DNA of 64,000 nucleotides from Dehalococcoidia bacterium. Lineage in GTDB: Bacteria > Chloroflexota > Dehalococcoidia > Lucifugimonadales > UBA3495. Positions within the stretch are counted from its first letter, which is position 1, and each line of letters opens with the position of its first letter. Made by a program: the position numbers and the translations under genes. Below, in pieces: positions 3,699 to 38,437 of this stretch. Where the stretch lies: assembly GCA_965262865.1 (NCBI GenBank), contig CBDHFZ010000003.1, positions 214,566-278,565 on the forward strand, given 5' to 3'. Below the pieces are notes generated by a model. That model saw only the letters and a program-made list of their open reading frames with translations, ran no database searches and had not been told where the DNA came from.

Positions 3699-4253
3699 CT
3701 ATGGTACTTCCGCCATCGAATACGTGCTGCCCACGATGGGCAGATAGATCCGGAGCGTCACCTGCACGTTGGCGTGGCCCAGCCAGCTGCTCACCACGTT
3801 GAGCGGAACCCGGCCGACCATCAGCCAGTGCCGGGCGGCGCTAAGCCGCAGGCTGTGAGCGCCAGCCAGCCGTTTGCCAGTCCCGGGCGACTCCTCATCG
3901 AGGCCCGCCCACCGGATACCATCGCCGATATGCCGCAGGGCGGTCCGCATGGTGAGCGTCACCACCGGGTCCCTGGGTGAGTGCTTCACCGGCCAATTGG
4001 TGAAGAGCTGCACCATTTCATCATGCAACGGCACCGTGCGCGCCTTCCCCGACTTCGATTCCCTCACCAACAGCGTCGGGGCCTCGGACCGGTAGTCCAA
4101 GTCCCGCCACTCCAATGCCAGGACCTCGGAGATCCGCAGGCCGGTGCGCCACATGATTAGCGCCAGGGCCCGCGCCTGGAGACGGTTGTGGACCGCCAGC
4201 GCACCCAGCAGCCGGCCCACCTGATCAACGGTCCAGTAATGCGGCACGTCCAT
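3699..4253 (-). CDS. Compact tyrosine recombinase (catalytic domain only, 184 aa)
   Basis: Catalytic signature is readable: RTGLRISE (Arg I), SKSGKARTVPL (Lys), HSLRLSAARHW (HxxR), WLGHANVQVTLRIYL (His/Tyr). There is no N-terminal core-binding domain. Confidence 0.8.
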   Translation of the reverse strand: MDVPHYWTVDQVGRLLGALAVHNRLQARALALIMWRTGLRISEVLALEWRDLDYRSEAPTLLVRESKSGKARTVPLHDEMVQLFTNWPVKHSPRDPVVTLTMRTALRHIGDGIRWAGLDEESPGTGKRLAGAHSLRLSAARHWLMVGRVPLNVVSSWLGHANVQVTLRIYLPIVGSTYSMAEVP

Positions 4254-4256
4254 GCT

Positions 4257-4282
4257 GGCAGATTACATTTATAAAGTCTGCC
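4257..4282. repeat. Recombinase-core-site-like imperfect palindrome, copy a (GGCAGATTA-N8-AAGTCTGCC), followed by CCGGCAA
   Basis: Read directly. It lies 4 nt upstream of the recombinase start codon (4253) and is related to copies at 4354 and 5500. Confidence 0.55.
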
Positions 4283-4353
4283 AAAACAACCGGCAACTGT
4301 CATCAGTGAACGACTGCCCGTAAGGTCGATTCATAGGGCCCTCCCCAAAAAGT

Positions 4354-4378
4354 GGCAGAGTTCGGCCCAAACTCTGCC
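4354..4378. repeat. Recombinase-core-site-like palindrome, copy b (GGCAGAGTT-CGGCCCA-AACTCTGCC), followed by ACCGGCAA
   Basis: Perfect 9-bp inverted arms around a 7-bp spacer. The ~40-bp context (CCAAAAAGTGGCAGAG...CCACCGGCAA) is repeated at 5492-5532. Confidence 0.6.
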
Positions 4379-4697
4379 ACCGGCAATCAACACTACGTTG
4401 CCCAAATTCCCGCACCACGCGGCCCAGGACACGTCCTGCAGCTTCAAGCGGAAATTGGCCGCACGCGGTTTCCTGGCAGTAGACTGACGACACCGGCCAC
4501 CAACGACCAACGGGGCGGCCGAGTTTTGTGCCGGGGGCTGCTAGAAATTCGCCACAGTCTCCGGAACCAAGCAACGTACCGGGGCCTCTCAGCAGCCTCT
4601 GTTGCTGTTCACAAAAACGCGGATCCAGTTTTGCAATCTTCTGACCATAGCCTCGCCATAAAGAACACGATACGATCTTGGAGAAAGGAGCAACCTC

Positions 4698-5408
4698 ATG
4701 TCAACTTACGAATGTGAATATGTTTACTGCGCCGACATAGGGTCTATGCAGACCGGTAAGAAAAGAAATGAAAATCATTTTGGTTGGGCCGGAGTATCAA
4801 TCTGTCCGAATGGACAACAATCCCCATGGCGAAAAGGCAAGGATATGCAGGAACTGGTGGACGTTGTCGCCGACCGTTTGAACCAAGGTGCCAAGGTTGC
4901 CTTGGGTTTCGAATGCCCACTATGGGTTCCGGTCCGGGACGACCCCAAGACACTTACCTCGCAGCGGTGTGGTGAAGGAACTCCATCCTGGGCTAGTCGG
5001 ACAGGGGCCACCGTTCTAACCACCGGATTGGCACAGGTCTCATGGATTCTCCAAAAGATTCGCGAGAAACCGGTGAACTCGAGAGCCTTCTTGGACTGGA
5101 ACTCGTACCGGACATCTAAAGACGGACTTTTCATATGGGAAGCATTCGTTTCTGGGAAAGCGAAAGTTTCTGGGAAAGCGAAAGTTTCTGGGAAAGCGAA
5201 AACGGACTCGCACATAGGAGACGCAAAGGTGGCGGTTGCCGCTTTTTTAAAGGCTTTCCCGTCGCTGGAAACTTCGATTCTGGAAACTTCGATTACCGAG
5301 CCTCCAGGATCGAAGACACGTTCCCTGATAGGCGCTGCCCTGCTTTGGGCATCCTGGTCCAAAGACCCTTCTCTTCTGCACCAGCCCTGTACAGTGATAA
5401 AGGCATAA
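4698..5408 (+). CDS. Hypothetical protein with in-frame tandem repeats (VSGKAK x3, LETSI x2)
   Basis: 236-aa ORF with SD-like GAGAAAGGAG 8 nt upstream of the ATG. It is visibly AT-richer than its neighbours. An 18-bp unit GTTTCTGGGAAAGCGAAA occurs x3 (5148-5201) and a 15-bp unit CTGGAAACTTCGATT occurs x2 (5265-5294). No family recognised with confidence. Confidence 0.6.
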   Translation: MSTYECEYVYCADIGSMQTGKKRNENHFGWAGVSICPNGQQSPWRKGKDMQELVDVVADRLNQGAKVALGFECPLWVPVRDDPKTLTSQRCGEGTPSWASRTGATVLTTGLAQVSWILQKIREKPVNSRAFLDWNSYRTSKDGLFIWEAFVSGKAKVSGKAKVSGKAKTDSHIGDAKVAVAAFLKAFPSLETSILETSITEPPGSKTRSLIGAALLWASWSKDPSLLHQPCTVIKA

Positions 5409-5499
5409 GGTCCGACAACCAAAATCACGAATTCGCGGAACAACGATTGACCGTCAGCAATTTCGCTACGAACAGCGACGACGGCCGCAGGCCAAAAAT

Positions 5500-5524
5500 G
5501 GCAGACTTTGGGGCAAACTCTGCC
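5500..5524. repeat. Recombinase-core-site-like palindrome, copy c (GGCAGACTT-TGGGGCA-AACTCTGCC), followed by ACCGGCAA
   Basis: Direct repeat of copy b, on the other side of gene 4698..5408. Confidence 0.6.
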
Positions 5525-5740
5525 ACCGGCAACGCCGCGGCCGCGTCAGAGGCAGAGGCAGACGGCGGCGAAATGTTCCGGCCGCATACCCCGTCCGAAG
5601 CGGTTCTCAGGGCACACCGGACCAGCGACTTTTTACGTTTCCGGAAATATGGAGCTAAACCGCTCCCAGCAATGGGGTCGACTCCGGTAGGGGGCAGAAT
5701 CATACGCTAAGGCCGCCAGTCGGTAAGGCTGCCCCAAGGG

Positions 5741-7342
5741 CTAGCCAACGCCATCGGCGCCCCTCCGCAACACCCTCCCAGGCAGAGCCCCAGTGTGCTC
5801 TGCCTCATCAATGACCACCTCCCCGTTCGCCACCACCGTCGAGATGCCCGTAGCGTACTGGTGGGGGTCGTCGTAGGTGGCTACCTCCGCTACGGTGTCC
5901 GGGTCGAAGACCGTGACGTCGGCCCAGTTACCCTCTTTCAGGGTGCCCCGGTCCACCAATCGCAGGGCCTCTGCTGACCCGCCGGTCATCTTGTGTACAG
6001 CGGTGTGCAGAGGCATCAGGCCCAGGTCGCGGACGTAATGGCCGAGAACCCGGACAAAGGTGCCGTAGAAGCGGGGGTGCGGCTTACCCTGGCCGGTGAT
6101 GCCGTAGGGGGCCAATGAGTTACCGTCGGAGCCCACCAGGACCATGGGCGAGCGCAGGATTTCCTGCACGTCCTCTTCCGCCATCGAGGTAACCACGATG
6201 CGGGTATGCCCCCTGTCGGCCAGGAGGATGTCGCAGGCGGCGTCCAACTGATCGATGCCCCTGGCCTCGGCCACCTGGCCCACCGTCTGGCCAGCCAGCT
6301 CGGGCATCTCGGGGCTGATGGCGATGCGGACGGCGTGCCATGATTCCACTCGCCCGAAATTGTTGAGCCCGTCCTGCAGGATACCACCCCGAATGCGCTC
6401 CCTTGCCTCGCCGTCCCGCAGTCGCCCGAGCATGGGCTCCACTCCTCCCTCCTGCACCCAGACGGGGAGCAGGTTGCGCAAGGGGTTGGTGCCAGCCGTG
6501 TAGGGATATTGATCGCAGAACAGGTCGATGCCCCGTTCCCTCGCATCGCTGATCAGCGACAGCAGCGACGGCACGTCGCCCCAGTTGTCCATGCCCGAGA
6601 GCTTCAGGTGAGCGATCTGCACCCTCACTCCGGCACTTTGGCCGATGCCAATAGCCTCGCGTACTGCGTCGAACACATGGTTGGCCTCGTCGCGGATGTG
6701 CGAGGCATAGGTGGCGCCGTGCTGGCGCAAGACACCTGCCAAGGCCAGCAACTCCTCGGTCTGCGCATAGTTGCCCGGCGCAGTGAACAGCCCGGTGGAC
6801 ATGCCCAAGGCGCCCGCCTCCAGGCCTTCGGCGAGGAGTTGCTGCATGTGTGACAGCTCGCTGGCAGTAGGGTCTCGCGCCTCCAGGCCCATGGTCATTA
6901 GACGCAGGGTCGCGTGACCCACCTGCATCACCGTGTTCACCGAGGTGGAAGGGAAGCCGTCCAGGTACTGGGCAAAGGTGCGCGGCTCGTAGTCCAGCCA
7001 GGGAGCCCCAGCCCTCAGGTATTCCTGAAGGGCCTCGGCCTTGCCGGGCAACACAGGAGCAGTGGAGTAGCCGCAGTTGCCCACCACCTCCGTGGTGACC
7101 CCTTGGCGGACCTTGCTTTCGGCCAGCGGGTTCAGGGGGAGGGTGAAGTCGGAGTGGGTGTGGATGTCGATGAAACCCGGAGCGACGATCTGTCCCGAGG
7201 CGTCTATCACCCGTTGCGCCTCTCGGTCTTCACAGTCTCCCACAGCAGTGATGCGTCCATTTCTGATGGCAACGTCCGCCCGCCGCGCCGGTGTCCCATT
7301 CCCGTCAATCACCTGTCCACCACGGATCAATAGGTCTTCCAT
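5741..7342 (-). CDS. D-aminoacylase / N-acyl-D-amino-acid deacylase family amidohydrolase
   Basis: 533 aa. The N-terminus MEDLLIRGGQVIDGNGTPARRADVAIRNGRITAVGD and GFIDIHTHSDF (HxH metal site) match the amidohydrolase superfamily. Length and the C-terminal beta-sandwich-like tail (VVANGEVVIDEAEHTGALPGRVLRR) are typical of D-aminoacylases. Confidence 0.85.
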   Translation of the reverse strand: MEDLLIRGGQVIDGNGTPARRADVAIRNGRITAVGDCEDREAQRVIDASGQIVAPGFIDIHTHSDFTLPLNPLAESKVRQGVTTEVVGNCGYSTAPVLPGKAEALQEYLRAGAPWLDYEPRTFAQYLDGFPSTSVNTVMQVGHATLRLMTMGLEARDPTASELSHMQQLLAEGLEAGALGMSTGLFTAPGNYAQTEELLALAGVLRQHGATYASHIRDEANHVFDAVREAIGIGQSAGVRVQIAHLKLSGMDNWGDVPSLLSLISDARERGIDLFCDQYPYTAGTNPLRNLLPVWVQEGGVEPMLGRLRDGEARERIRGGILQDGLNNFGRVESWHAVRIAISPEMPELAGQTVGQVAEARGIDQLDAACDILLADRGHTRIVVTSMAEEDVQEILRSPMVLVGSDGNSLAPYGITGQGKPHPRFYGTFVRVLGHYVRDLGLMPLHTAVHKMTGGSAEALRLVDRGTLKEGNWADVTVFDPDTVAEVATYDDPHQYATGISTVVANGEVVIDEAEHTGALPGRVLRRGADGVG

Positions 7343-12615: not shown

Positions 12616-15600
12616 ATGACGCAAAGCCAGAGCCGACAGACCGCCGGGCAATCACTGCCGGACTCGCTGCGCAACTGCCTCTCGCTCGACATCGAGGTAT
12701 CGAGACAAAGCGGGCAGATAGTTGCCGCCGCCGCGTGCAACCCGCAAACCGGCCGGACCTGGCGCGCAAGAGGACCCCTGACCCAGCAGCAACTGCTGGA
12801 GCTCGACCGTATGGCGGCCGAGGCGGACCACCTCGTGGGCCACAACATACTCGCGTTCGACCTCCCGCAACTGAGAGCGCTGCACGCCGGACTGGGGCTG
12901 CTGGACATGCCGGCCCTCGACACCCTGCACCTGAACCCCCTGGCGTTTCCGGCACACCCGTATCACCGGCTTGTGAAGCACTACCGGGACGGGGACCTGA
13001 TCCGCACCACCCACAACGACCCGCTGCTGGACAGCCAGCTGACCCTGCAGGTCCTGGAGGCCCAGCTGACACAGCTGCGGGAGAACACGTCGCCCGAGCT
13101 GCTGTCGGTCTGGCACTGGCTGACCGCCCACGAGTCGGGCCCCGCCTTCGACGCCCTCTTCACCGAGGTGAGACAGCGTCCCCTACCGGCGCCCGAAGAG
13201 GGCAGGGAGGCGCTGTGGCGCTTCCTCGCCGGGAATGCCTGCGACGCCGCGGCCCGCGAGCTGACAGCCACCGCCGAAGAGTCGGCCTGGCCGGCCGCCT
13301 ACGTGACCGCCTGGATGTCCACGGCCGGCACCAACTCGGCCATACCGCCCTGGGTGCTGCAGCATCACCCCGATACCGCCGCCCTGGCGAGAAAGCTCAG
13401 GGAGGAGAGCTGCACCGACCCCGCCTGCACCTGGTGCCCCGAGATGAACGACGTGGTGAAGGAGCTGACCCGGTGGTTCGGCTTCGACTCATACCGGCCC
13501 ACGCCGGCCGACCAGGAGGGACGGTCGCTCCAGGAGAGGATCACCGAGGCGGCCCTGCGGGGCCGGAGCGCCCTCGGGGTGCTGCCCACCGGCACCGGCA
13601 AGTCGCTCTGCTACCAGGTCCCCGCCCTGTCGGCCTACGACAAGACCAGCGCCCTCACGGTGGTGATCTCCCCGCTGGTGGCCCTGATGGCCGACCAGCT
13701 GGCCGGGCTGGAGCGCAACGGCATAACCAGCGCAGTCAGCATCAACAGCCTGCTCTCGATGCCGGAGCGCAGGGACGCCCTCGACCGGATCATGCGCGGA
13801 CAGGCATCGCTGGTGATCATCTCGCCGGAGCAGCTGCGGTCCCCATCGGTAAAGCAGGCCCTGCAGCAGCGGCTCATCGCTCGCTGGGTGTTGGACGAGG
13901 CACACTGCCTCTCCAAGTGGGGACACGACTTCCGCCCCGACTACCGCTACATCGCCCGGTTCATCAGGGAGAACCTGGGAGGCCAGAGGCCGCCGGTGCT
14001 CTGCCTTACCGCCACCGCCAAGCCGGACGTCAAGGACGAGATACAGGAGTACTTCCGCAGCGAGCTGGACATGGATGTGGAGTTGCTGGACGGCGGCGCC
14101 AGCCGCGAGAACCTGGTATTCGACGTGCTGCTCACCAAGCCGCAGCTGAAGATGGCCCAGGTTACGGAACTGCTGGAGCAGCACCTCAGCGGCAACGGCA
14201 GCGCTGCCATAATCTACCGGGCCAGCAGGCGACGGGCCGAGGAGACCGCAGAGCACCTGAACGTGAACGGAGTTGCGGCGGGCCACTTCCACTCGAGGAT
14301 GAGCCCGGAGCGAAAGCTGGATACCCAGCGGCAGTTCCTCGACGGCAGCATCAGGGTGATCTGCGCCACCAACGCTTTCGGCATGGGAATCGACAAGCCC
14401 GACATCCGGCTGGTGATCCACGCCGACATACCGGGCTCGCTGGAGAACTACCTGCAGGAGGCCGGCAGGGCCGGACGGGACGCCGGCAGCGCTCACTGCG
14501 TCCTGCTCTACGACTCCGATGACACCGAGTGGCAGCATGGCCTGCAGGCATCTAACCGACTCAGCAAGCGGGACATCGAGGCCATGCTGAAGGCGCTGAA
14601 GCGCCTGGACGGTCAGAACAACCGCCACGCCCAGGAGGGAGAGCGCAGGCCGGTCATCGCCACCACCGGGGAGATACTGGCCCATGACGAGGACGAGGAG
14701 TTCGAGTCGGAGCTGGAGAACCGGGACACCAAGGGCCGCACCGCCATCGCCTGGCTGGAGGAGGCGACGCTGGTCGCCCGCGGCGACAACCAGGTGACGA
14801 TATTCCCGTCGTCCCTAAAGATCAGGGGCATCAGCGAGGCCCGCGACATAGTGGACCGGGCGTCGCAGAGAGACCGCCGGTACGCGAGCCAGCTGATCCA
14901 GATCGTGCGGAGGGTGATGAACGCCGCCGCCGACACCGGCATCAGCACCGACGAGCTGACCACGGTGACCGGCCTCGAGACCAGCCAGCTCAGGAAGGCG
15001 CTGGACGACTTGGCCAATTTGGGAATACTGGACGACGACAGTCGGCTGACCGCCTACGTGCACGTCGCCACCGGGCGGGGCTCCAGCTCCGCGGACCGCT
15101 ACGAGCGCGCCGCCGCCATGGAGGAGGCGCTGGTCGACCACATGCGCCAACAGGCGCCCGACCAGACGGGCGGAGGCGAGGAACCGCTCTACATCCGCGA
15201 GGTCAACCAGTGGCTCCTGGCCCAGGGACACGACTCGGCCCTGCCGGTCAGGGTGATGCGGCTGCTCAGGTCGCTGGCCCAGACCGGCACCGAGCTCCAA
15301 CCCGGCAACCCCAACCTGAGACTCAGGCTGGTCGCGCAGGAAAGGATGCACGTCACCCTCAACACCACCTGGACGCAGCTCGCCGACAGTGCCGCCCGCA
15401 GAAGAAGGGCCGCCCGGGCGGTACTGCGGACCCTCAGGGACAGCCTGGGAACGGATGCGCGCGGTGCCGACCTGCTGGCCAGCACCACCACCGGAGAGCT
15501 CACCGAAGCACTGAGGCTCGATGGCCAGGTCACCGCGGCGGTGGACGTTAGCAGGCTGCTGCAGCAGGCGCTGCTTTGGCTGCACGACCAGGAGGTCATA

Positions 15601-17784
15601 CGGCTCAACCAGGGCATGACCATCATGCGGCCGGCAATGTCCATTGAGATCAGGGACCGCCGGCGACAGTTCACCAACGCCGACTACGAGCCTCTGGACC
15701 TGCACTACACCGAGCAGACGGTCCAGGTCCACATAATGGCCCAGTACGCCCAGACGGGCCTGGAGTCGGCCGCCGACGCCCTGGCACTGGCACTAGACTA
15801 CTTCACCATGCCGAGGGAGCAGTTCGCCGCCCGCTGGATGGCGGGCCGCAGCCAGGACCTGCGGCGCAGGACTACCCCGGAGTCATATCAGCGCATCGTG
15901 ACGTCACTGAACAACCGCGCCCAGCAGGAGATAGTGACGCAGGACCGCGACGGCCGCAACACCCTACTGCTGGCCGGGCCGGGCTCCGGCAAGACCAGGG
16001 TGCTGGTGCACCGCATCGCCTACCTGGTCAGGGTCAGGCGTGAGAACCCCCGCTCCATACTGGCGCTGGCCTACAACCGCCACGCCGCGGTGCAGATCCG
16101 CCAGAGGCTGCGGGAACTGATCGGCGACGAGAGCAGTGGCGTGGCGGTGCTGACCTGCCACTCGCTGGCCATGCGGCTGGTGGGCCGCACCTTCGAGAGC
16201 AACAAAGCCCGCACCGACAAAGAGGCCAGCGAGATCTTCGACCAGATACTGCAGGAGGCCACCCGGCGGCTGGCCGGCCTGGGCCCCGGTGAGGCAGAGG
16301 AGCGCGACGAGCTCAGGGACCGGCTGCTGGGCGGGTTCCGCTGGGTGCTGGTCGACGAGTACCAGGACATCAAGAGGGCCGAGTACGAGCTGATTTCGGC
16401 CCTCACGGGGCAGGACCGCGGGGAGGAGGACCAGCTCAATATCTTCGCCGTGGGGGACGACGACCAGAACATATACGCATTCAGCGGCTCCTCTACCGAG
16501 TACATACGTCGCTTCCAGGAGGACTACAGGGCCCACGAGTCCTACATGACGGAGAATTACCGCTCCACCCGCAACATCATAGAGGCCGCCAACGCGGTCA
16601 TCGGTAAAGCAGCGGACAGGCTGAAGCGCGAGCACCCCATAACGGTCGACACGGTCCGAACCCTCGAGCGCGCCGGCGGCGCTTGGGAGACGATGGACCC
16701 GATCTCAGGGGGACGGGTACAGATACTGCCGGCCGGCGACGACAGGATAACCCAGGCGGTGGCCGCCGTGGAGGAACTGAGGAGACTGGCGGAGTGCGAC
16801 GCCCAGTGGGACTGGAGCCGGTGCGCCGTCATCGCACGCCAGTGGGACCTGCTGGAGCCGGTCAGGGCAGTCTGCGACAGCCAGGGGATCCGCTCGCAGA
16901 GCGCCCGCGAGGACTTCACCGGCACCTGGCAGCTGAGAGAGACGCAGGACCTCCTCGAGTGGACCACCAGGCAGGAGAGCGGGGTCGACCCCCGCGAGGC
17001 CCTGGACTGGCTGCGCGGCCAGACCCCCAACACCTGGAACACCCTGCTGCAGGAGGCGCTGGAGCAGGCCGCATCGGAGTTGCCCGAGGGCCGGATGCCC
17101 CGGCGGGAGTTCACCGAATGGCTGGCCGAGTGGGCCCGGGACAACCGGCGCCAGCAGCACGGGCTGCTGCTGACCAGCGCGCACCGCGCCAAGGGGCTGG
17201 AGTTCGACCACGTCGTCATACTGGACCACCAGTGGCAACCGTCCGCCCGCAGGGCCGTAGACATGGACGAGCTGAGGCGCCTCTACTACGTCGCCATGAC
17301 CCGGGCGCGGCTGACCCTGACCCTCTGCCGCAGCGGCAACACCAACCCGTTCCTGTCGGCCCTGCAGGGCTGCGAGGCAGTGGTGGAGCGAGAGGCGTCC
17401 AGATGGCGGCCGGAGCCGCCCCCGGAGGCCCGCAGCAGGACCGTCAGGCTGAGCCTGAGCGACATGTTTCTGTCTTACGCCGGACGGAGCTGGGACCGGC
17501 GCACCCACGAGGCGCTGACGGCCCTGCATCCCGGAGACCCGCTCAAGATCAACACCAGGGGCGAGCGTTGGGAGATCATTACGCCCGAAGGCACCCCCGT
17601 CGGCCGCCTCTCCGCAAAGGGGCAAAAGCAGATGCCCACCAACCTGGCCGGTAGCCAGGCGGGCGCCATGGTGCTGGCCATCACCAAGTGGAACAGCGAC
17701 AAGTCAGATCCCGAGTACCGGCGCGGACTCGCAAAGGGGGACTGGGAGGTGGTCATCCCGGAGATCCGCATAACCCCGGCATGA
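12616..17784 (+). CDS. Triple-fusion DEDDh 3'-5' exonuclease / RecQ-family helicase / UvrD-family helicase (1722 aa)
   Basis: Exonuclease motifs: LSLDIEV, GHNILAFDLPQL, HNDPLLDSQ. RecQ motifs: LPTGTGKSLCYQVPA (~aa 324), DEAHCLSKWGHDFRPDY, CLTATA, ATNAFGMGIDKPDIRLVIHADIP, QEAGRAGRDA. UvrD motifs: LLLAGPGSGKTRVLVHRIAYL (~aa 1117), VDEYQDI, FAVGDDDQNIYAFSG, ENYRST, SAHRAKGLEFDHVVIL, LYYVAMTRAR. Confidence 0.9.
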   Translation: MTQSQSRQTAGQSLPDSLRNCLSLDIEVSRQSGQIVAAAACNPQTGRTWRARGPLTQQQLLELDRMAAEADHLVGHNILAFDLPQLRALHAGLGLLDMPALDTLHLNPLAFPAHPYHRLVKHYRDGDLIRTTHNDPLLDSQLTLQVLEAQLTQLRENTSPELLSVWHWLTAHESGPAFDALFTEVRQRPLPAPEEGREALWRFLAGNACDAAARELTATAEESAWPAAYVTAWMSTAGTNSAIPPWVLQHHPDTAALARKLREESCTDPACTWCPEMNDVVKELTRWFGFDSYRPTPADQEGRSLQERITEAALRGRSALGVLPTGTGKSLCYQVPALSAYDKTSALTVVISPLVALMADQLAGLERNGITSAVSINSLLSMPERRDALDRIMRGQASLVIISPEQLRSPSVKQALQQRLIARWVLDEAHCLSKWGHDFRPDYRYIARFIRENLGGQRPPVLCLTATAKPDVKDEIQEYFRSELDMDVELLDGGASRENLVFDVLLTKPQLKMAQVTELLEQHLSGNGSAAIIYRASRRRAEETAEHLNVNGVAAGHFHSRMSPERKLDTQRQFLDGSIRVICATNAFGMGIDKPDIRLVIHADIPGSLENYLQEAGRAGRDAGSAHCVLLYDSDDTEWQHGLQASNRLSKRDIEAMLKALKRLDGQNNRHAQEGERRPVIATTGEILAHDEDEEFESELENRDTKGRTAIAWLEEATLVARGDNQVTIFPSSLKIRGISEARDIVDRASQRDRRYASQLIQIVRRVMNAAADTGISTDELTTVTGLETSQLRKALDDLANLGILDDDSRLTAYVHVATGRGSSSADRYERAAAMEEALVDHMRQQAPDQTGGGEEPLYIREVNQWLLAQGHDSALPVRVMRLLRSLAQTGTELQPGNPNLRLRLVAQERMHVTLNTTWTQLADSAARRRRAARAVLRTLRDSLGTDARGADLLASTTTGELTEALRLDGQVTAAVDVSRLLQQALLWLHDQEVIRLNQGMTIMRPAMSIEIRDRRRQFTNADYEPLDLHYTEQTVQVHIMAQYAQTGLESAADALALALDYFTMPREQFAARWMAGRSQDLRRRTTPESYQRIVTSLNNRAQQEIVTQDRDGRNTLLLAGPGSGKTRVLVHRIAYLVRVRRENPRSILALAYNRHAAVQIRQRLRELIGDESSGVAVLTCHSLAMRLVGRTFESNKARTDKEASEIFDQILQEATRRLAGLGPGEAEERDELRDRLLGGFRWVLVDEYQDIKRAEYELISALTGQDRGEEDQLNIFAVGDDDQNIYAFSGSSTEYIRRFQEDYRAHESYMTENYRSTRNIIEAANAVIGKAADRLKREHPITVDTVRTLERAGGAWETMDPISGGRVQILPAGDDRITQAVAAVEELRRLAECDAQWDWSRCAVIARQWDLLEPVRAVCDSQGIRSQSAREDFTGTWQLRETQDLLEWTTRQESGVDPREALDWLRGQTPNTWNTLLQEALEQAASELPEGRMPRREFTEWLAEWARDNRRQQHGLLLTSAHRAKGLEFDHVVILDHQWQPSARRAVDMDELRRLYYVAMTRARLTLTLCRSGNTNPFLSALQGCEAVVEREASRWRPEPPPEARSRTVRLSLSDMFLSYAGRSWDRRTHEALTALHPGDPLKINTRGERWEIITPEGTPVGRLSAKGQKQMPTNLAGSQAGAMVLAITKWNSDKSDPEYRRGLAKGDWEVVIPEIRITPA

Positions 17785-18276
17785 CTCAGGGCTGCAGGGG
17801 GTATCAGCACTGAAGAGCGCAGACACAGGGACCAGAGAGGCACGGATCTCGGTGCACGGCCGGACCGAGAGGATACCTGTGCATGGCCTCGCCCAAATCG
17901 TTACGCTACGAAAGTGGTTGCCCCAGATGATATGTTAACGAAAATTCGGTCCGCAGCAGCGTGTTGTCCGGCACTCTGCCCAACAAACGATGGAGTCGGA
18001 CGCCGCTAGTGCGGCGGAAGGAGGCACAGCTACAGAGAGGCAGGCTGTCAAAGGTCTCAACACTACAATAAACAACTGGGAGTGGTTGCTTGCATCGGAC
18101 CGTTGGCCGTCCACACGGAGGACGCCATACGGAACCTGATCAGATACTATCGGCAAATTGAGAATGGATACCCACAAATGTTCCGATAGCCATTCCACGA
18201 TAAAATCAGACTATCCTGGTTTACCACCTTGTCCAGGATCGGACGGCGAAGGTAGGACGCCCGACGGCAGTCCTCT

Positions 18277-18534
18277 TTGTCCAAGAGGGAGCTACAAGCT
18301 ATGCAAAAGGCGCTGCACCTTAAAACAACGGTACTGCCAGGGGGAAGGATAGAAATCATTGACCAGGACCTGCTCGAAGGAGAGGCCGTAGATGTCGTCG
18401 TGACACCCTTGGCGGCGACGCCGCGGCGGTCGGCGGTGGACATTCTCGCAGAGGGGCCGGGGCAGAGGCTCTTCAAGACCGCTGCAGATGTGGACTCCTA
18501 CATCCAGGCCGAGCGCGAATCGTGGGAGCGCTGA
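18277..18534 (+). CDS. vapB: VapB-type antitoxin (AbrB/SpoVT-like N-terminus)
   Basis: 85 aa. The stop lies 13 nt inside the following PIN gene. The HLKTTVLPGGRIEIIDQDLLEGEAVDVVV segment is swapped-hairpin-like. Confidence 0.65.
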   Translation: MSKRELQAMQKALHLKTTVLPGGRIEIIDQDLLEGEAVDVVVTPLAATPRRSAVDILAEGPGQRLFKTAADVDSYIQAERESWER

Positions 18535-18959
18535 CGCTGCCTGACAGCGGGCCGATATATCTGGACTCCTGCGGATTCATTTACAGCGTGGAGCGGGTCG
18601 AACCCTACCGCACCCTGCTTGAACCCATGTGGCAACAGGCTGCTGCAGGCCGGTTCGTCATCGTAACCAGTGAGTTGACAGTATTGGAAACGCTGGTCAA
18701 GCCCCTCAGGGAGGGCGATGCGTTCCTCGAAAGACTCTTCAGGGAACTATTTGATGCGGTCGAAGTACGGCTGATTCCGGCCACCCGACCGCTGTGGGAA
18801 GAGGCCGCACGCCTTCGAGCCACGACGAATTTGAGGACGCCGGACGCACTCCACGCGGCTGCGGCGCTCCGGGAAGGGTGTGCGCTGTTCGTCACCAATG
18901 ACACAGCCTTTCGGAGAGTGTCAGGGCTGCCTACAGCAGACTTGAATGAGTCAGTCTAA
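18522..18959 (+). CDS. vapC: PIN-domain ribonuclease (VapC-like)
   Basis: Acidic PIN residues in context: IYLDSCGFIY, TSELTVLE, RTPDALHAAAA, FVTNDTAF. GTG start overlaps the antitoxin gene. Confidence 0.85.
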   Translation: MGALTLPDSGPIYLDSCGFIYSVERVEPYRTLLEPMWQQAAAGRFVIVTSELTVLETLVKPLREGDAFLERLFRELFDAVEVRLIPATRPLWEEAARLRATTNLRTPDALHAAAALREGCALFVTNDTAFRRVSGLPTADLNESV

Positions 18960-18967
18960 CTCTGTCC

Positions 18968-19825
18968 ATGGGAACAGGACCTATGCCGGGCGATAACTTC
19001 AACGAGCACTGCGAGGCTTTACTCGTAAGGTACAACCGCAGGAATACGCAGGCTGTCACGAGGCATCTGGAAAGCTTGTGCAACATCCTGAGGCAGGAGG
19101 GCAACCATGTGCTCCAGACCATGTTCGGCGGTTCCGTCCGCAGGCGCACATACGTCAATGGTCTCAGTGACGTGGATGTCCTGCTGGTAGTGAACCAATC
19201 CTCACTTCTGAACCAACCCCCGGCAAGGGTAGTAGAGTACGTGCGGGAGACCATCCAAGGTCATCTGCCTCTGAATCCCGTGAGAGCGGGCAACCTGGCG
19301 GTAACCGTCAACTATGGCGATGGAATGGAAATCCAGATACTGCCCGCCATACGGACCAACACCGGAGGCGTCCGGATTGCTGAACCAGGGAGCACCAGAT
19401 GGAGCAACGTGGTGCAACCCGAAAACTTTGCCAGAGAACTCGCGGAGGTCAACCAGGCGAAGAATGGCAGAGTAGTACCAGTAATCAAGCTCGCCAAGGC
19501 CATGGCGGACTGCTTGATTACCCGCCAGGGTTGGAAAATCCGCGGCTATCATATGGAGTCTCTGGCGATCGACGCATTCAGGAACTATCAAGGTCCCCAG
19601 GACCCGAAGTCCATGCTCGTTCACTTGCTCACCAACTCGATGACAGCGGTGATGAGACCAATAACAAACTCTACAGGACAGTCCAGGTACGTTGACGAGT
19701 ATCTGGGTGCGGCAGACTCCCGGGCGCGGAGACGGGCATCAAACCACTTTGGGCGAATGAGACGCAGGATCAGCTCCTGCAGGACCAGGGCTCAATTCAA
19801 CAACCTGTTCTGTGAAGGGAACTGA
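18968..19825 (+). CDS. SMODS/CD-NTase-like pol-beta-fold nucleotidyltransferase
   Basis: FGGSVRRRTYVNGLSDVDVLLVV matches the G[GS]-x9-13-[DE]x[DE] NTase signature. A third acidic position is plausible in GDGMEIQILPA. The helical C-terminal half (VPVIKLAKAMADCL...GYHMESLAIDAF) follows the CD-NTase layout. It starts 8 nt after the PIN stop. Confidence 0.65.
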   Translation: MGTGPMPGDNFNEHCEALLVRYNRRNTQAVTRHLESLCNILRQEGNHVLQTMFGGSVRRRTYVNGLSDVDVLLVVNQSSLLNQPPARVVEYVRETIQGHLPLNPVRAGNLAVTVNYGDGMEIQILPAIRTNTGGVRIAEPGSTRWSNVVQPENFARELAEVNQAKNGRVVPVIKLAKAMADCLITRQGWKIRGYHMESLAIDAFRNYQGPQDPKSMLVHLLTNSMTAVMRPITNSTGQSRYVDEYLGAADSRARRRASNHFGRMRRRISSCRTRAQFNNLFCEGN

Positions 19826-19840
19826 GTTAGGCGATCACTG

Positions 19841-20683
19841 ATGGACGGCAAATTCATTATGATATCCGGCAGCGCAGGCCTTTCGTGTCCTGCGGACAAG
19901 TTGCTCGTGGCTTCCCAGTTCGTCCAGAGCTTCGCCAGAGAGGTGTTGAGACAGGGAGGAGGCCTGGTAGTTCTTGCAGGGGACGAGGAGTCCACCAAGG
20001 ACGAAAACGGTGTGCCCCATGTTTTCGACTGGCTGGTCCTGCGCGAGGTCGAGAACTACGCAGGAACCACTACCGAAGACCCCCGCCCATACGCCAGAAT
20101 CATCATGTCCGACGAAGCGCAGCATTCCAAGATAGATCCCGCGAATCTGCGCCTCCTGATGAATCTGGAGCAGAGAAACGTCGTCGAACTTTGTCCCATA
20201 CGCCGAGAGGTGTTCACCGGCGGCGAGTATAGAAAGGCGATGATTGAACGGGCCGACGCCATGATCGCCATCGGCGGAGGCAAGGGAACCTATTCTGCTG
20301 GAACAGATATGATTGCTCAAGGAAAACCCGTGTTACCACTCGACCTGCAGCTTGGCTCCATTGTCCAGGATGGCGACGGAGCCGTTACTCTGCACAGGGA
20401 GATGGTGTCGACCCTCGGCCGTTTCTTCCCGAACACGTACGTGGACTCGAGAAACAGACTTAGCCTGCTCTCCTTGGACAGAGGAATCAACGACGCAGAA
20501 ACCGTGGCGCGAGTGTCAGTCGAGATGCTCTCCAAGGAACTCAACGCCCTTGCGCCGTCAGATCAGCCAATCAAAGTCACGCGGCGTTTGGCAGCCGTGT
20601 GGCAGACCACAAAGGCCCTTCCCGTTATCGCATCTGCGATCAGAATTTTAGAATGGGCAAAGGCTCTACTCTCTTTCACCTAA
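19841..20683 (+). CDS. SLOG/LOG-like Rossmann nucleotide-binding protein with hydrophobic C-terminal helix
   Basis: FIMISGSAG..., GLVVLAGDE, and ADAMIAIGGGKGTYSAGTDMIAQGKPVLPL (LOG/DprA-type GGxGT loop). The C-terminus is LAAVWQTTKALPVIASAIRILEWAKALLSFT. It starts 15 nt after the NTase stop. Confidence 0.55.
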   Translation: MDGKFIMISGSAGLSCPADKLLVASQFVQSFAREVLRQGGGLVVLAGDEESTKDENGVPHVFDWLVLREVENYAGTTTEDPRPYARIIMSDEAQHSKIDPANLRLLMNLEQRNVVELCPIRREVFTGGEYRKAMIERADAMIAIGGGKGTYSAGTDMIAQGKPVLPLDLQLGSIVQDGDGAVTLHREMVSTLGRFFPNTYVDSRNRLSLLSLDRGINDAETVARVSVEMLSKELNALAPSDQPIKVTRRLAAVWQTTKALPVIASAIRILEWAKALLSFT

Positions 20684-20686
20684 ATC

Positions 20687-20917
20687 TGTAAGCGGCGGAG
20701 TTAAAGTGGGCCGCGTGGGCGTAGAATTGCTGAGTATCGGCGAACAAATACTGTACCGCCCGCCATCATTCATCCCGCCATCATTCATAGGGTTGTAGCC
20801 GACCCATGGATGGCGCGACGGATGTACAAGGTGCACGTATATTTGCGGGTTCGCTGGGCGGTGATGGTGGATGTGATGATCATGCGGGAAGCAGCCCGGG
20901 TGTTCGGTCTGCACCGG
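20687..20917 (+). mobile_element. IS21-family left end plus 5' istA remnant (degenerate second copy)
   Basis: TGTAAGCGGCGGAGTTAAAGTGGGCCGCGTGGGCG... aligns by eye with the reverse complement of 40586-40350 (TGTAAACGGCGGAGATAAAGTGGGCCGCGTGGGCG...). It encodes MYKVHVYLRVRWAVMVDVMIMREAARVFGLHR, compared with IstA MYSVDVYLRVRRAVMVDGMSMRETARPFGLHR. It contains a local duplication, CCCGCCATCATTCAT x2. Confidence 0.8.
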
Positions 20918-21216
20918 GCGGGAGTGGAGTTCCGGTCCCTGGCGGAAGACTTCGACACGGCCACACCCACCGGCAAGCTCCAGCTCTCGATGGTGCTCAC
21001 CTTCAGCGAGTGGTGGCGGAACTCGATCAGGGAGCGCTCGGTCGCGGGCCAGGCGAAGGCTGCGGACCGAGGGGCTTTCCCCCGGCCGACGGCCCAGCCT
21101 GACTGACCAGCAACGGGAGTACATCCGGGAGGAGCGATCGAATGGAGTGAGCCAGCGGGAATTGGCCAAGCGCCTGGAGGTCAGCCGCTGGACCATCCAA
21201 CAGGTGAACGGGTAAG
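20918..21216 (+). pseudogene. Serine recombinase (resolvase/invertase) C-terminal remnant, frameshifted
   Basis: DTATPTGKLQLSMVLTFSEWWRNSIRERSVAGQAKAADRG, then in another frame LTDQQREYIREERSNGVSQRELAKRLEVSRWTIQQVNG (HTH). It has no N-terminal catalytic Ser region and is joined directly to the IS21 remnant. Confidence 0.75.
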
Positions 21217-22012: not shown

Positions 22013-22780
22013 ATGCCTTCCTCAATTGAATGGACCGACGAGAGCTGGAACCCAGTCACTGGCTGTACTCGCGTGTCGCCGGGCTGCGATCACTGCTATA
22101 TGTTCGCTCTCTACCCACGGCTGCGGGGGATGGGCGTCCCAGGGTACGAGACCAGCCCGGATAATGTTCGTCTGCTCCCCGAACGGCTCCAGACTCCGCT
22201 GTCATGGAGGAAGCCTCGTTTCGTATTCGTGAACAGCATGTCCGACGTGTTCCATCCCGAGGTACCCTTCGACTACATTCTTCAAATGTTCTCAGTAATG
22301 GCAGAGGCCTCAGCACAGCGTGGTCATGTGTTTCAGGTTCTGACCAAGCGGCCCGGAAGAGCGGTCGCATGGTGGGAGCAGAACCAACAACGCTTTCCAG
22401 AGGGATGGCCTCCGATGGTATGGATTGGCACATCGGTGGAGAGCCAAAAATACGCTCCGCGTCTCACGGTGCTGGAGCGCCTTCCAGCGTCTGTCCGTTT
22501 CGTATCTGCCGAGCCGCTACTCGAACGCATTGATCTCCGGCCGTGGCTTGAAAGGGGTGCACTGAACTGGGTCATCGCCGGTGGCGAGAGCGGGCCGGGC
22601 GCCCGGCCAATGGACCCCGACTGGGTGCGGGACCTGCGCGACCAATCCGTCGACTCCGGTGTTGCTTTCTTCCTGAAGCAGCTCGGAGGCGTCCGGAACA
22701 AGCGCGGAGGTGCAGACGCACTCATGGGCGACGGCGAGGAGAGCCGGCTTTGGCGAGAAATGCCCATCCCGGGTCGATGA
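22013..22780 (+). CDS. DUF5131 (phage Gp37/Gp68 family) three-Cys-motif protein
   Basis: N-terminus SSIEWTDESWNPVTGCTRVSPGCDHCY is the hallmark of this family. The family-typical stretches VNSMSDVFH and WVIAGGESGPGARPMDPDWVRDLRDQ are also present. Confidence 0.85.
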   Translation: MPSSIEWTDESWNPVTGCTRVSPGCDHCYMFALYPRLRGMGVPGYETSPDNVRLLPERLQTPLSWRKPRFVFVNSMSDVFHPEVPFDYILQMFSVMAEASAQRGHVFQVLTKRPGRAVAWWEQNQQRFPEGWPPMVWIGTSVESQKYAPRLTVLERLPASVRFVSAEPLLERIDLRPWLERGALNWVIAGGESGPGARPMDPDWVRDLRDQSVDSGVAFFLKQLGGVRNKRGGADALMGDGEESRLWREMPIPGR

Positions 22781-22815: not shown

Positions 22816-23649
22816 GTGACTGCCAGGAACCGGGGACAGGAACTGAAGAAAGCCTCAGACGGGCTGCTCGCTTTGAGTGTTGCCGGGCACGCCAAAGAAA
22901 AGGAATTCGCCCTCAAGAACATAACAGGCATCTTTACTCATGCGATGAAGAACAAGTGGCCTGGAAGGCTCTACTACGTGGACTTGTTCTGTGGGCCCGG
23001 CAGGTGCGTCATCAGACACTCGGATGCCGAAACAGAAGGGTCTCCGCTGATCGCCGTGGAAGCACCTTTCAACCACTATTACTTCGCGGACGCAGATAAG
23101 CCATCCATCGATGTCTTGAGAGAGCGAGTAGCCGGAATCAATGGTTCGGGAAAACGGCTTCATTTCTATGCTGGCAGAGCAGAAGAAACCGTAGATGAGG
23201 TCTTGCGGGATCTCCCACACCCAAACCGGTCGCTTGGGCTCGCTTTCCTTGACCCCTGGGCCTGGGACTTCTCGTTTGAGGACCTCAAGAGACTGACCAG
23301 GGGCCGCCGGCTGGACATACTGATAAATTTCAATATCGGGTACATGAAGAGAAATTGGCGGTATGAGTCTCCGGAACTGGACTCGTTTCTGAACCTGCCT
23401 GTGGATCACCGGGAGTTCTTCAAAACGAAAGCGCAGGGAATTCCGGATACCCGCACCCTGCTGGACCACTATGAGGACGAATTGCGAAAGATCGGCTACG
23501 AGCACACCGCCGATGACAGACCCGAGACGAACTCAAACAACACGCCACTCTACCACCTTGTTTTTGGCAGCAAGAACAAGCTAGGGAAAACGCTAAGAGA
23601 TGCCGTATCCCAGAAGACTCTGAGCGGGCAGTTCACGATGTTCGGATAA
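22816..23649 (+). CDS. tcmP: TcmP (three-Cys-motif partner protein) family
   Basis: 277 aa immediately downstream of DUF5131, the pairing that defines the family. LYYVDLFCGPGRC, EGSPLIA, YYFADAD and LAFLDPWAW resemble the methyltransferase-like TcmP core, from memory of the family description. Confidence 0.7.
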   Translation: MTARNRGQELKKASDGLLALSVAGHAKEKEFALKNITGIFTHAMKNKWPGRLYYVDLFCGPGRCVIRHSDAETEGSPLIAVEAPFNHYYFADADKPSIDVLRERVAGINGSGKRLHFYAGRAEETVDEVLRDLPHPNRSLGLAFLDPWAWDFSFEDLKRLTRGRRLDILINFNIGYMKRNWRYESPELDSFLNLPVDHREFFKTKAQGIPDTRTLLDHYEDELRKIGYEHTADDRPETNSNNTPLYHLVFGSKNKLGKTLRDAVSQKTLSGQFTMFG

Positions 23650-25080: not shown

Positions 25081-25812
25081 TCAAGTGTTTTGTTGACCGA
25101 GGCGTTCTTCCAATTCGCGGACACGGGCCTCGGCAGCCAGGCGGCGGGCGCGCTCGCGGTACAGGTCTGCGAGTTCCGCGGTCATTGTCGAGAGACGCCG
25201 GTCCAGCCGGGCGTCGTAGAAGTCCAGCCTTCCTTTCAGGTATGGGTGCGAATTAACCTTGTGCCATTGTAAATGCACGTCCAGGACATGGCTGTAGCCC
25301 TGCCGGAGTTCCGCTCCCAGCTGCTCGACGGCAATGGGCTGATAGCAGCCATCCACCAGCCGGTCTCCGGCCAGATACTCTCCGTTGTATTCTCCGGTGG
25401 GATCGAATCGCCAATATTCGGGTATGCCCAGGGCGGCGTAGGCAGCGCGCTTCACCGTGGCGTCCAGGTTCCCACTGGCGTAGGAAGCGATTTCCAGCAC
25501 GAAGTCCGGCGGCTTGCCCTGTTCGGAGATGACGTAGCCGTTGCGTTTATTGTTACTCTCCCGACTGGCGTTGAAGGACACGAACAGGTCGGGAGCAAAC
25601 AGTCCGGTGGCGTCGTCGGTAACGACTGGACTGACGTAGCACCAGCCGGACATGACCATGGTATCCAGACGGCCCAAGTAGAGATTCAGGAAATAAGCGT
25701 TACCGTTTACCCACAGGTGGTCGGCGGCCACGCCGTCCCGGATCTCATCAGGAGGATCAGGAAGGAAGAGCTCCGGTTGGAGATCCAGATCTGTGGCGCA
25801 GGGAACGCTCAT
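25081..25812 (-). CDS. Uma2-family (DUF820) endonuclease
   Basis: PDLFVSFN...GKPPDFVLEIASYASGNLDATVKRAAYAALGIPEYWRFDP is the canonical Uma2 core. The C-terminal tail is coiled-coil. Confidence 0.85.
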   Translation of the reverse strand: MSVPCATDLDLQPELFLPDPPDEIRDGVAADHLWVNGNAYFLNLYLGRLDTMVMSGWCYVSPVVTDDATGLFAPDLFVSFNASRESNNKRNGYVISEQGKPPDFVLEIASYASGNLDATVKRAAYAALGIPEYWRFDPTGEYNGEYLAGDRLVDGCYQPIAVEQLGAELRQGYSHVLDVHLQWHKVNSHPYLKGRLDFYDARLDRRLSTMTAELADLYRERARRLAAEARVRELEERLGQQNT

Positions 25813-26597
25813 GATCCGGACCCCCCATGTGGCAACAGCGCCTCCAGTTCTCGTATACGGGCCTCGGCGGTCTCGCGGGCGGCCCGCTCGGCGGCGGCGG
25901 TGCGTTGGCGCTCTTGCTCGCGCAGTTGCCCTTCGGTGTCGGCGCGTTGGCGCTCCGTCTCCTGACTGGGAATGTAATCCTCTGAGTTGGGGTCGTACCA
26001 GTCCAGCCGGCCTTCCCGCCAGCAGAAGTACAGCCCCAGTGCCTCGCTGTATCCCCGCAACTCCCCGTTTGGCAGTTCGTCCACCATGATGGGCTGGTAC
26101 TGACTGTCCACCAGCCAGTCGCCAGCCAGCCGCGTCCGGTGAAACTGACCGGTCTCGTCAAAGCGCCAGTATTCCCGCACGCCCAGGCCGGCGTAGAAGT
26201 CCACCTTCACCCCGGTGTCAACGTGCCCGGTGCGGCGGGACGCAATTTCCAGTACCAGGTCCGGCGGCTTGCTCTGCAGCGACACCACGTAGCCGTTGTT
26301 GGTCTCGTATAAATCAGGGTCGGCGTTGAAAGCGACCATCAGGTCCGGGTAGCGTCTGGGACCTCCTGGCACGACACAGATGTAGCGCTCGCCGGATACG
26401 ATGGTGGTTTCGGGATCACCGAGGTATAACTCCAGGCGGCCTTGATTGCCACCCTTGGCCATTGCTTGGAACTGGTCGTGTCGTCGGGATGCCTCTCCGG
26501 GATGTCGGGCAGGCGGTAGGCCTGGGGATTTTGCAGAGCCGGTTGAGCGGCGCGGAGGTTGGTCATGGGATTTCTCCATGGGACTGGCTTGGGCCAT
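25809..26597 (-). CDS. Uma2-family (DUF820) endonuclease, tandem paralog
   Basis: PDLMVAFN...SKPPDLVLEIASRRTGHVDTGVKVDFYAGLGVREYWRFDE. The stop overlaps the start of the downstream paralog (4-nt overlap). Confidence 0.85.
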   Translation of the reverse strand: MAQASPMEKSHDQPPRRSTGSAKSPGLPPARHPGEASRRHDQFQAMAKGGNQGRLELYLGDPETTIVSGERYICVVPGGPRRYPDLMVAFNADPDLYETNNGYVVSLQSKPPDLVLEIASRRTGHVDTGVKVDFYAGLGVREYWRFDETGQFHRTRLAGDWLVDSQYQPIMVDELPNGELRGYSEALGLYFCWREGRLDWYDPNSEDYIPSQETERQRADTEGQLREQERQRTAAAERAARETAEARIRELEALLPHGGSGS

Positions 26598-38350: not shown

Positions 38351-38437
38351 CCCCTCGTAACTCCCGAGACCAGCTAACCCAGTTCCTTCACAAATTTACC
38401 CTGTGCAACTGCGTATTTCACCTTGGCTTTAGTTTAG
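37197..38437 (-). mobile_element. IS630-family element (type 1), 1241 bp with 28-bp TIRs
   Basis: TIRs CTAAACTAAAGCCAAGGTGAAATGCGCA (37197-) and TGCGTATTTCACCTTGGCTTTAGTTTAG (-38437). The flanks are compatible with TA target duplication. It contains a two-frame transposase. Confidence 0.85.

Follow-up and report, generated by a model that had tools for sequence, protein, structure and literature searches.

A VapBC-type toxin-antitoxin pair in front of a two-gene CBASS of probable Type IV descent in a Dehalococcoidia defense island

The window analyzed here is a 64,000-nt stretch of DNA from a Dehalococcoidia bacterium (contig CBDHFZ010000003.1 of assembly GCA_965262865.1, positions 214,566 to 278,565 of the forward strand). 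At 18277-20683, it carries a tight unit of four genes that encode a VapB-like antitoxin, a PIN-domain toxin, a nucleotidyltransferase (NTase), and a protein with a SLOG domain. The unit is, with fair confidence, made up of two separable modules that lie head to tail in a defense island: a VapBC pair and a minimal two-gene cyclic oligonucleotide-based antiphage signaling system (CBASS). A first-pass annotation, made from the sequence alone, had proposed a single CBASS-like module that could couple a nucleotide signal to a PIN RNase.

The four-gene unit and the identity of its modules

The unit is composed of four open reading frames (ORFs), an upstream leader, and an insertion sequence (IS) end. 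The cyclase is of the cGAS/DncV-like nucleotidyltransferase (CD-NTase) type.

17785-18300 (+): leader ahead of the antitoxin gene, a putative promoter or operator region
18277-18534 (+): ORF 1, 85 aa as open from TTG 18277; the VapB-like antitoxin of 77 aa lies at 18301-18534 and is a conserved partner whose gene extends 13 nt past the start of the PIN gene in 16 loci
18522-18959 (+): ORF 2, PIN-domain (VapC-type) toxin of 145 aa with a GTG start (Pfam PF01850, 1.9e-17)
18968-19825 (+): ORF 3, 285 aa as open from ATG 18968; the CD-NTase (CBASS cyclase) of the CdnD/Type IV lineage, ~280 aa, lies at 18983-19825
19841-20683 (+): ORF 4, CBASS effector candidate of 280 aa with a TPALS/Cap17-like SLOG domain (residues 2-236), a short linker, and a helix
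20573-20677 (+): conserved C-terminal amphipathic helix of ORF 4, residues 245-279, ~35 residues
20687-20714 (+): 28-nt sequence that copies the terminal inverted repeat of an IS21-family element and bounds the conserved unit on its right

The layout described by the first-pass annotation is present. All four ORFs lie on the forward strand, with a 13-nt overlap between the antitoxin and PIN genes, an 8-nt gap between the PIN and NTase genes, and a 15-nt gap between the NTase and SLOG genes. No terminator separates them, the only forward-strand match of the scan being weak and inside gene 4. The motifs it had named were also found, i.e., FGGS...SDVDV in gene 3, GGGKGT at residues 145-150 of gene 4, and the PIN acidic residues, and the IS21 end that it placed 4 nt past the last stop is the repeat at 20687-20714.

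Relatives were collected by a scan of species-representative genomes. The scan returned 55 loci (L numbers below), all from Dehalococcoidia or Chloroflexota metagenome-assembled genomes, and these were compared by clustering of neighborhood ORFs, profile searches, and a core tree. The comparison bears on three start codons. For the antitoxin, ATG 18301 is the most likely start and yields 77 aa as in relatives, because the GAGGGAG Shine-Dalgarno sequence before this codon is conserved and the in-frame upstream TTG is missing from L006 and L007. The GTG start of the PIN gene is favored because the N-terminus MG[APS]L.LP is conserved. The cyclase probably starts at the second ATG, 18983, since relatives begin M[PS]xDNFN; the PIN-cyclase gap is then 23 nt, akin to the 11-23 nt of relatives.

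Gene 3 is identified from its sequence as a genuine CBASS cyclase of the CdnD lineage, with a predicted nucleotide product. It scores 228 bits against NCBIfam NF041117 (CBASS_cyclase_b; curated cut-off 200), 3.9e-97 against the PADLOC Cyclase model PDLC00790, and 1.9e-9 against Pfam SMODS. The suggested CD-NTase/SMODS identity is thus upheld; an MNT/KNT-type NTase, named beforehand as the result that would speak against it, is not what the profiles match. The sole solved relative is the CdnD of a Type IV CBASS (PDB 9ntn/9nto, 7e-59). The pol-beta active site is intact, as GGS and SDVDV align with LSDVDC of CdnD (the D94/D96 site). The PDB alignment begins at CdnD residue 42, so the window cyclase is without the N-terminal tail. 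Members of the window clade begin with M[PS]xDNFN, whereas the Type IV clade has a Gly-rich MGGSGGRF... start. In Type IV CBASS, the Gly-rich N-terminal tail of the CD-NTase is deazaguanylated at Gly2 (bioRxiv 10.1101/2025.04.06.647259).

Gene 4 carries a putative signal-binding SLOG domain of the TPALS/Cap17 type, for which ligand binding is predicted. The SLOG call of the first-pass annotation is borne out and refined by both profile search and predicted structure. The match to Pfam PF18178 (TPALS, 'Cap17-like_N') scores 2.6e-36 and joins residues 2-230 to profile positions 2-232 of 232. Two PADLOC effector models match in part: PDLC00759 (PNP type, 506 positions) at positions 5-240 only and PDLC00733 (TIR type, 388 positions) within its first ~240 positions. 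No Pfam or PADLOC model covers residues 240-280, which hold no recognizable cell-killing domain. An AlphaFold2 model has a mean confidence (pLDDT, predicted local distance difference test) of 82 overall and 43-54 in the C-terminal helix. Its best fold matches are the SLOG domains of ThsA (6lhx, 7uxs, 8btp), and TRPM2 and LOG are also matched. Judged by motif reading alone, LOG-like hydrolase activity is unlikely, since GGGKGTYSAG lacks the Glu of the LOG motif PGGxGTxxE. In Cap17, TPALS is a predicted signal-binding domain, and killing is performed by a separate PNP domain (bioRxiv 10.1101/2023.01.24.525353). With the cyclase above the NCBIfam curated cut-off and a TPALS sensor domain in its partner, the NTase-SLOG pair is a CBASS module, as had been supposed.

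The segment 18301-18959 has the features of an autonomous VapBC-type type II toxin-antitoxin (TA) pair, in which PIN toxicity and its neutralization are predicted. In VapBC systems, a small labile antitoxin neutralizes a PIN RNase until the antitoxin is lost. By this family knowledge, the window antitoxin would hold the PIN RNase inactive, and loss of the labile antitoxin would free the toxin. Across 13 homologues, the acidic residues D15, E56, and D127 of the PIN protein are invariant, and D108 is kept in 12. The PIN protein also has a weak PDB match to the VapC 7by2. The antitoxin is beta-rich in its N-terminal part, and its C-terminal tail, RSAxDIL..GPGQRLFKTAxEVDxY..EERxSW[DE]R, is conserved. 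It has no match in Pfam, NCBIfam, or PADLOC and no recognizable DNA-binding domain.

Descent and predicted output of the cyclase-SLOG core

In 49 of the 55 loci, the SLOG gene directly follows the cyclase gene. By these sequence comparisons, the pair is the conserved core of the system and its sole universally conserved unit. The basal clades of the core tree are canonical Type IV CBASS in the order [QueC/Cap9][TGT/Cap10][cyclase][SLOG-helix]. Their PADLOC scores are 9e-65 for QueC and 4e-90 for TGT, and Cap9 and Cap10 are both found in 12 basal relatives. The derived clade, to which the window belongs, is without Cap9, Cap10, and the Gly-rich cyclase tail. A tblastn search of the 64-kb window with Chloroflexota queries found neither Cap9 nor Cap10 (best E=0.34). 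The window CBASS is thereby placed as a descendant of Type IV CBASS that has lost Cap9 (QueC), Cap10 (TGT), and the cyclase tail that they modify. By gene content, it is classed as a Type I system, composed of a cyclase and an effector only.

Some loci are rearranged around the core. L014 (6981-9528) and L022 (7510-10170) carry a second full Type IV front end, made up of QueC, TGT, and a second cyclase, directly downstream of the derived-type pair, which indicates two related CBASS systems in tandem there. In L005, whose core is 90% identical to that of the window, a ~1.9-kb insertion (4120-6001) separates the cyclase from the SLOG gene. This points to ongoing disruption of these loci by mobile DNA.

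The effector candidate is a full-length protein of a recurring type. A protein search with gene 4 returned 450 matches, of which the best 120 are all 274-294 aa long, with 66-100% identity and 97-100% query coverage. Truncation of a Cap17 or TIR-SLOG protein by the IS21 end was considered and rejected, given more than 100 full-length ~280-aa homologues, a conserved tail, and loci with no IS. Nor did tblastn find a remnant of an effector domain elsewhere in the 64-kb window. The TPALS family is small, with 257 representatives in an exhaustive representative search. Its members fall into three length classes of ~280 aa, ~385 aa (TIR type), and ~510 aa (PNP type). Standalone TPALS effectors are not characterized in the literature searched, in which an earlier mention may still have been missed.

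The C-terminal helix has the core motif [KR]-phi-phi-E-[WF]-phi-[KR]-G-L. A266, I267, and E271 are invariant, and W272, L276, and F279 are nearly so. A clear transmembrane helix was considered and finds no support in hydropathy. By this measure alone (Kyte-Doolittle, 19 residues), the maximum is 1.41 (family range 1.01-1.61), under the usual transmembrane threshold. The helix is moderately amphipathic, with conserved K/R268, E271, and K/R274 inside the hydrophobic stretch. In our judgment, it looks more like a membrane-targeting or oligomerization helix. An amphipathic basic C-terminal helix is typical of membrane-targeting sequences, e.g., those of MinD and FtsA.

A mechanism for the pair can be proposed from family knowledge. 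On infection, the CdnD-lineage CD-NTase would make a cyclic oligonucleotide, and the TPALS SLOG domain of the 280-aa partner would bind it. If ThsA-SLOG filaments, other sensor-effector fusions, and sensor-helix effectors are a guide, the bound ligand may drive oligomerization, which in turn would gather the C-terminal amphipathic helices as the output. The likeliest form of this output, in which the clustered helices engage and disrupt the membrane, is tentative and still somewhat less probable than not. The two-gene core is presumed to hold the effector because this follows from CBASS logic and because the core is the only universally conserved unit. The earlier suggestion that the helix itself could be the effector is compatible with its strong conservation. 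Two points weigh against this proposed killing mechanism: the hydropathy of the helix is below the transmembrane threshold, and the confidence of the model is low there.

The same features would fit a different role, in which the SLOG protein is a sensor or adaptor only and its C-terminal motif recruits or activates a host protein or a downstream DprA/PsyrA-like protein. The low hydropathy, the conserved charges (K/R268, E271, K/R274), and the low pLDDT are as expected of such a motif. The extreme C-terminal motif is kept where the rest of the tail diverges, as a docking motif might be, and a DprA/PsyrA-like gene follows the SLOG gene by 8-30 nt in 18 loci. However, the window and about half of the loci lack that gene, the two-gene core alone is universally conserved, and CBASS logic places the effector within it. 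More distant short TPALS proteins likewise end in an amphipathic basic helix, typical of membrane targeting. An adaptor role is therefore unlikely, at perhaps one chance in five, and a helix-mediated output of the pair itself is preferred.

The VapB-PIN pair is separable from the core

Of the 55 loci, 16 have VapB-PIN immediately before the cyclase, in constant order and spacing. No Type IV relative carries the pair, about half of the derived clade lacks it, and its presence is scattered on the core tree. A check of four-gene co-occurrence, suggested by the first-pass annotation, found the same arrangement in 16 species-level reference genomes and 4 metagenome contigs. No description of VapBC upstream of CBASS was found in the literature searched, where an earlier mention is still possible.

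The history of the pair differs from that of the core. Identity of the PIN protein does not track core identity (r=-0.02), nor does that of VapB (r=-0.14), and the value for PIN rules out co-divergence with the core. Between L005 and the window, the core is 90% identical and the PIN protein only 61%, and the PIN alleles of the sister loci L015 and L016 differ from each other. This lack of correlation, together with the allele differences, indicates that the cassette is exchanged independently of the core. Nucleotide homology with the VapBC-free relatives L010 and L024 starts exactly at the cyclase start, and that with L009, L011, and L015 starts at the antitoxin start. With borders at these two positions, VapB-PIN behaves as a discrete block.

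The pair is also found far from CBASS. When metagenomes were scanned with the PIN profile, 80 loci of 43-76% identity came up, 64 of them with at least 300 nt of downstream sequence. A VapB homologue was detected beside PIN in 74 of the 80, in varied contexts. A cyclase follows in 4 of the 64 and is missing from the other 60. Genes downstream of these PIN relatives encode ThrRS, beta-lactamase-family proteins, a protein kinase, DUF1501 proteins, and adenylate-cyclase/AAA proteins. The idea that VapB-PIN is a general leader of defense genes was dropped, as elsewhere it precedes housekeeping or miscellaneous genes. Independence of VapBC from the other two genes in relatives, which had been named beforehand as evidence against coupling, is thus what the comparison found.

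These data bear on the coupling proposed by the first-pass annotation, in which the SLOG protein senses the cyclase signal and releases or activates the PIN RNase as the true effector of a four-component CBASS. The proposal has some appeal, since the SLOG protein is without a recognizable killing domain, the four-gene layout recurs, and the PIN catalytic residues are conserved. Against it, the same SLOG-helix protein with the same tail is present in the PIN-free loci, 33 of the 49 with a cyclase, all Type IV relatives included. The C-terminal helix is indistinguishable between PIN-linked and PIN-free loci, and its core motif persists in the Type IV clade. PIN-VapB overwhelmingly occurs apart from CBASS (VapB and no cyclase in the 60 metagenomic loci), PIN alleles are exchanged between sister loci, and other TA families take the same position. 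L006, L020, L033, and L035 have a split or shortened PIN ORF next to intact cyclase and SLOG genes; L006 is the closest syntenic relative of the window. L017 has an 886-nt insertion between the PIN and cyclase genes. The coupling of a nucleotide signal to PIN is therefore highly improbable. A role for PIN as the CBASS effector, or as a component needed by the CBASS pair, is not supported by the sequence comparisons.

Several observations weigh against a full separation of the two modules. The four-gene order, the strand, and the 11-23 nt PIN-cyclase gap are kept across cores down to ~62% identity. Such a recurring fixed layout across divergent cores suggests that the association is old or repeatedly restored. 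The gap leaves no space for a separate promoter. Some of the split PIN ORFs may be long-read assembly errors, and the SLOG gene itself is split in L031 and L046. TA cassettes are found upstream only, a hint that selection may favor such a cassette at this site. The earlier comment that the layout is not a recognized one was fair; the recurrence is ascribed to descent plus module exchange, over demonstrated functional coupling.

Expression is where the modules may meet. Because the spacing is tight, the four genes are probably co-transcribed from a promoter upstream of the antitoxin gene, and co-transcription is the sole coupling considered likely. The leader contains an inverted repeat, CTATCGGCAAATT (18147-18159) and AATGTTCCGATAG (18177-18189), with a 17-nt spacer, ~110 nt before the antitoxin start. 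The repeat is kept in L005, L006, and L007, of which L005 carries a divergent VapB allele. Leader homology with the window runs the full length in L006 and L007 and from ~18053 in L005. No sigma-70 consensus promoter was found in the region, a consensus that may not apply to Chloroflexota, and an Rfam search of the region gave no match.

The slot upstream of the core hosts other TA-type modules: DUF5615/PIN_10 in L027, DUF4258 with DUF2283 in L040, DUF6932 with a helix-turn-helix (HTH) protein and a 109-aa ORF in L014, and a weak MqsA-like match in L004. HicA lies further upstream of VapB-PIN in L011 and L015. L001 (4404-5136) is a mosaic with the order reversed, where a different PIN protein of 165 aa is followed by an 80-aa VapB-like protein. 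The latter resembles the window antitoxin only in the C-terminal ~35 residues (RSAVDILAEAPGQLLFKTAKEVDDYIKEERSSWDR), which suggests domain shuffling among antitoxins. The 1.3 kb upstream thus holds several unrelated TA families, each on the strand of the core, and no TA-type cassette was found among the 82 downstream ORFs within 1.3 kb. About 5 independent events underlie this bias, and it was from the upstream site, too, that Cap9 and Cap10 were lost.

The upstream bias leads to the hypothesis that TA modules serve as expression or stability leaders for immune operons. In this scheme, TA cassettes would have taken over the upstream control slot of a Type IV-derived CBASS, and an autoregulated TA promoter would drive the cyclase and the TPALS-helix effector in the clade without Cap9 and Cap10. 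Loss of the antitoxin on infection would release the RNase and lift repression of the cyclase and effector genes, so that antitoxin decay would license CBASS expression at the same time. The TA pair could also stabilize the defense cassette by post-segregational killing. The tight (11-23 nt) or overlapping gaps, the lack of a predicted terminator, and the conserved inverted repeat of the leader agree with this scheme. So do the unrelated same-strand families upstream (another PIN, DUF6932 with HTH, DUF5615, DUF4258 with DUF2283), HicA ahead of VapB-PIN in two loci, and the absence of TA families among the 82 downstream ORFs. There is also a precedent, the two-gene regulator cassette CapK/CapS upstream of CBASS (PMC13373217).

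Other data fit poorly. Half of the derived clade has no recognizable TA cassette, and some of these loci have divergent upstream genes, so the cyclase-SLOG pair can be expressed on its own. The antitoxin lacks a recognizable DNA-binding domain. The leader is kept between loci whose VapB alleles are 49% identical, a poor fit to an allele-specific operator. With ~5 events behind the bias, the slot may simply be recombination-prone, as Cap9 and Cap10 were lost there. Both a control or stabilizing role of the cassette and the takeover of the upstream slot by TA promoters are thus considered improbable, though well ahead of a PIN effector. Two separable modules, probably joined by a shared transcript, are preferred.

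Downstream of the core, the only recurrent family is a DprA/PsyrA-like gene, with 10 ORFs by Pfam and 18 loci by clustering. It encodes ~200 aa, lies 8-30 nt past the SLOG stop in those 18 loci, and is often followed by Avs2. It is found at about 6850-7460 in L001, L009, L011, L015-L017, L022, L025, L030, L040, and others. Its PADLOC PsyrA score is 1.2e-13, and its Pfam DNA_processg_A match is below the cut-off. By tblastn, the gene is absent from the 64-kb window, and the lineage of the window lacks it; it is missing from about half of the loci.

The region has the content of a defense island. Neighbor genes in relatives belong to defense systems, namely Avs2, SIR2-type systems, and Type IIG restriction-modification. 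Directly upstream of the unit in the window is a 1722-aa ORF (12616-17784, +), a RecQ/DEAD-type helicase fused to a UvrD/GajB-like helicase. It scores 2.8e-111 for DpdF and 1.3e-88 for PsyrT in PADLOC and is probably a separate defense gene.

The repeat at 20687-20714 is a solo IS21 end that abuts the SLOG stop. Its inverted partner at 40559-40586 has 2 mismatches (0 expected by chance) and is the end of an intact IS21 element with an IstA-like gene (38966-40477) and an IstB gene (38418-39089). The two ends are inverted and 19.9 kb apart, and the segment between them could have been mobilized as a composite unit. The IS21 junction is common to the window and L006 and is not shared by L007, whose homology ends exactly at 20684. 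Beside the IS end, 20810-21106 (+) encodes part of a serine recombinase, with a match to Pfam Resolvase limited to positions 86-144, and seems to be a pseudogene remnant. Further on, a DUF5131 gene (22013-22780, +; phage Gp37/Gp68-type) is followed after 35 nt by a 277-aa gene without a Pfam match (22816-23649, +), and the two may be a conserved pair. On the reverse strand, 25081-25812 and 25809-26597 are tandem overlapping paralogues of the Uma2 family (putative restriction endonuclease). Their DNA forms direct repeats that are 71-77% identical, with a spacing of 734-755 nt.

Significance and comparison with known systems

The components are of known kinds, as NCBIfam and PADLOC recognize the CBASS and the VapBC pair is ordinary. 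Three features make the unit a variant: a Type IV-lineage cyclase that lacks Cap9, Cap10, and the modified tail, an effector class of sensor plus helix, and a dispensable but recurrent TA cassette upstream. If the analysis holds, the window encodes a natural Type IV-lineage CdnD that works without Cap9, Cap10, and a modified tail. Such a tail-less CdnD bears on the purpose of deazaguanylation, which was left open by the Type IV study (10.1101/2025.04.06.647259). The compact, conserved effector class (a TPALS sensor and one amphipathic helix, more than 100 sequences, no recognizable killing domain) offers a tractable system in which to study cell killing or arrest by a bare sensor. The unit is also a caution that tight packing in defense islands does not equal functional coupling, as a promiscuous VapBC cassette rides in front.

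The VapB-PIN pair resembles VapBC type II TA systems in its small antitoxin gene that overlaps the PIN toxin gene, its acidic active-site residues, and its occurrence as an autonomous two-gene cassette in many unrelated contexts. Unlike the VapBC norm, the window antitoxin fits no curated antitoxin family and has no recognizable DNA-binding domain, and in some Dehalococcoidia the cassette directly precedes a CBASS pair.

Upstream regulator cassettes of CBASS, i.e., CapW, CapH/CapP, and CapK/CapS, share the position directly upstream of CBASS, and the analogy is positional only. Their proteins are unrelated to VapB-PIN, and no repressor function is predicted for VapB here. In the CapK/CapS study (PMC13373217), VapC appears only in a separate VapKSC TA system and not as a CBASS partner.

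Type IV CBASS is composed of CdnD, Cap9, and Cap10, with or without Cap11 (Wassarman et al., 10.1101/2025.04.06.647259). The cyclase lineage is the same as that of the window, Type IV loci match the same PADLOC cyclase model, and Chloroflexota Type IV operons encode an effector orthologous to gene 4. Unlike Type IV CBASS, the window has no Cap9, Cap10, or Cap11 in the operon or elsewhere in its 64 kb, and its cyclase is without the Gly-rich N-terminal tail with the deazaguanylated Gly2.

Cap17 is a TPALS-PNP ATP nucleosidase (Rousset et al., 10.1101/2023.01.24.525353) with the same N-terminal PF18178 domain as gene 4. Its C-terminal PNP domain (residues 239-505) is replaced in gene 4 by ~45 residues of linker and helix, with no TIR domain either. 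ThsA, the SIR2-SLOG protein of type I Thoeris, provides the best structural matches to the SLOG domain of gene 4 and is the model here for how a SLOG sensor may oligomerize on ligand binding. The output of ThsA is a SIR2 NADase, whereas gene 4 has the helix only. The ligand classes also differ: ThsA responds to glyco-cyclic ADP-ribose (gcADPR), and the predicted ligand of gene 4 is the product of its CD-NTase.

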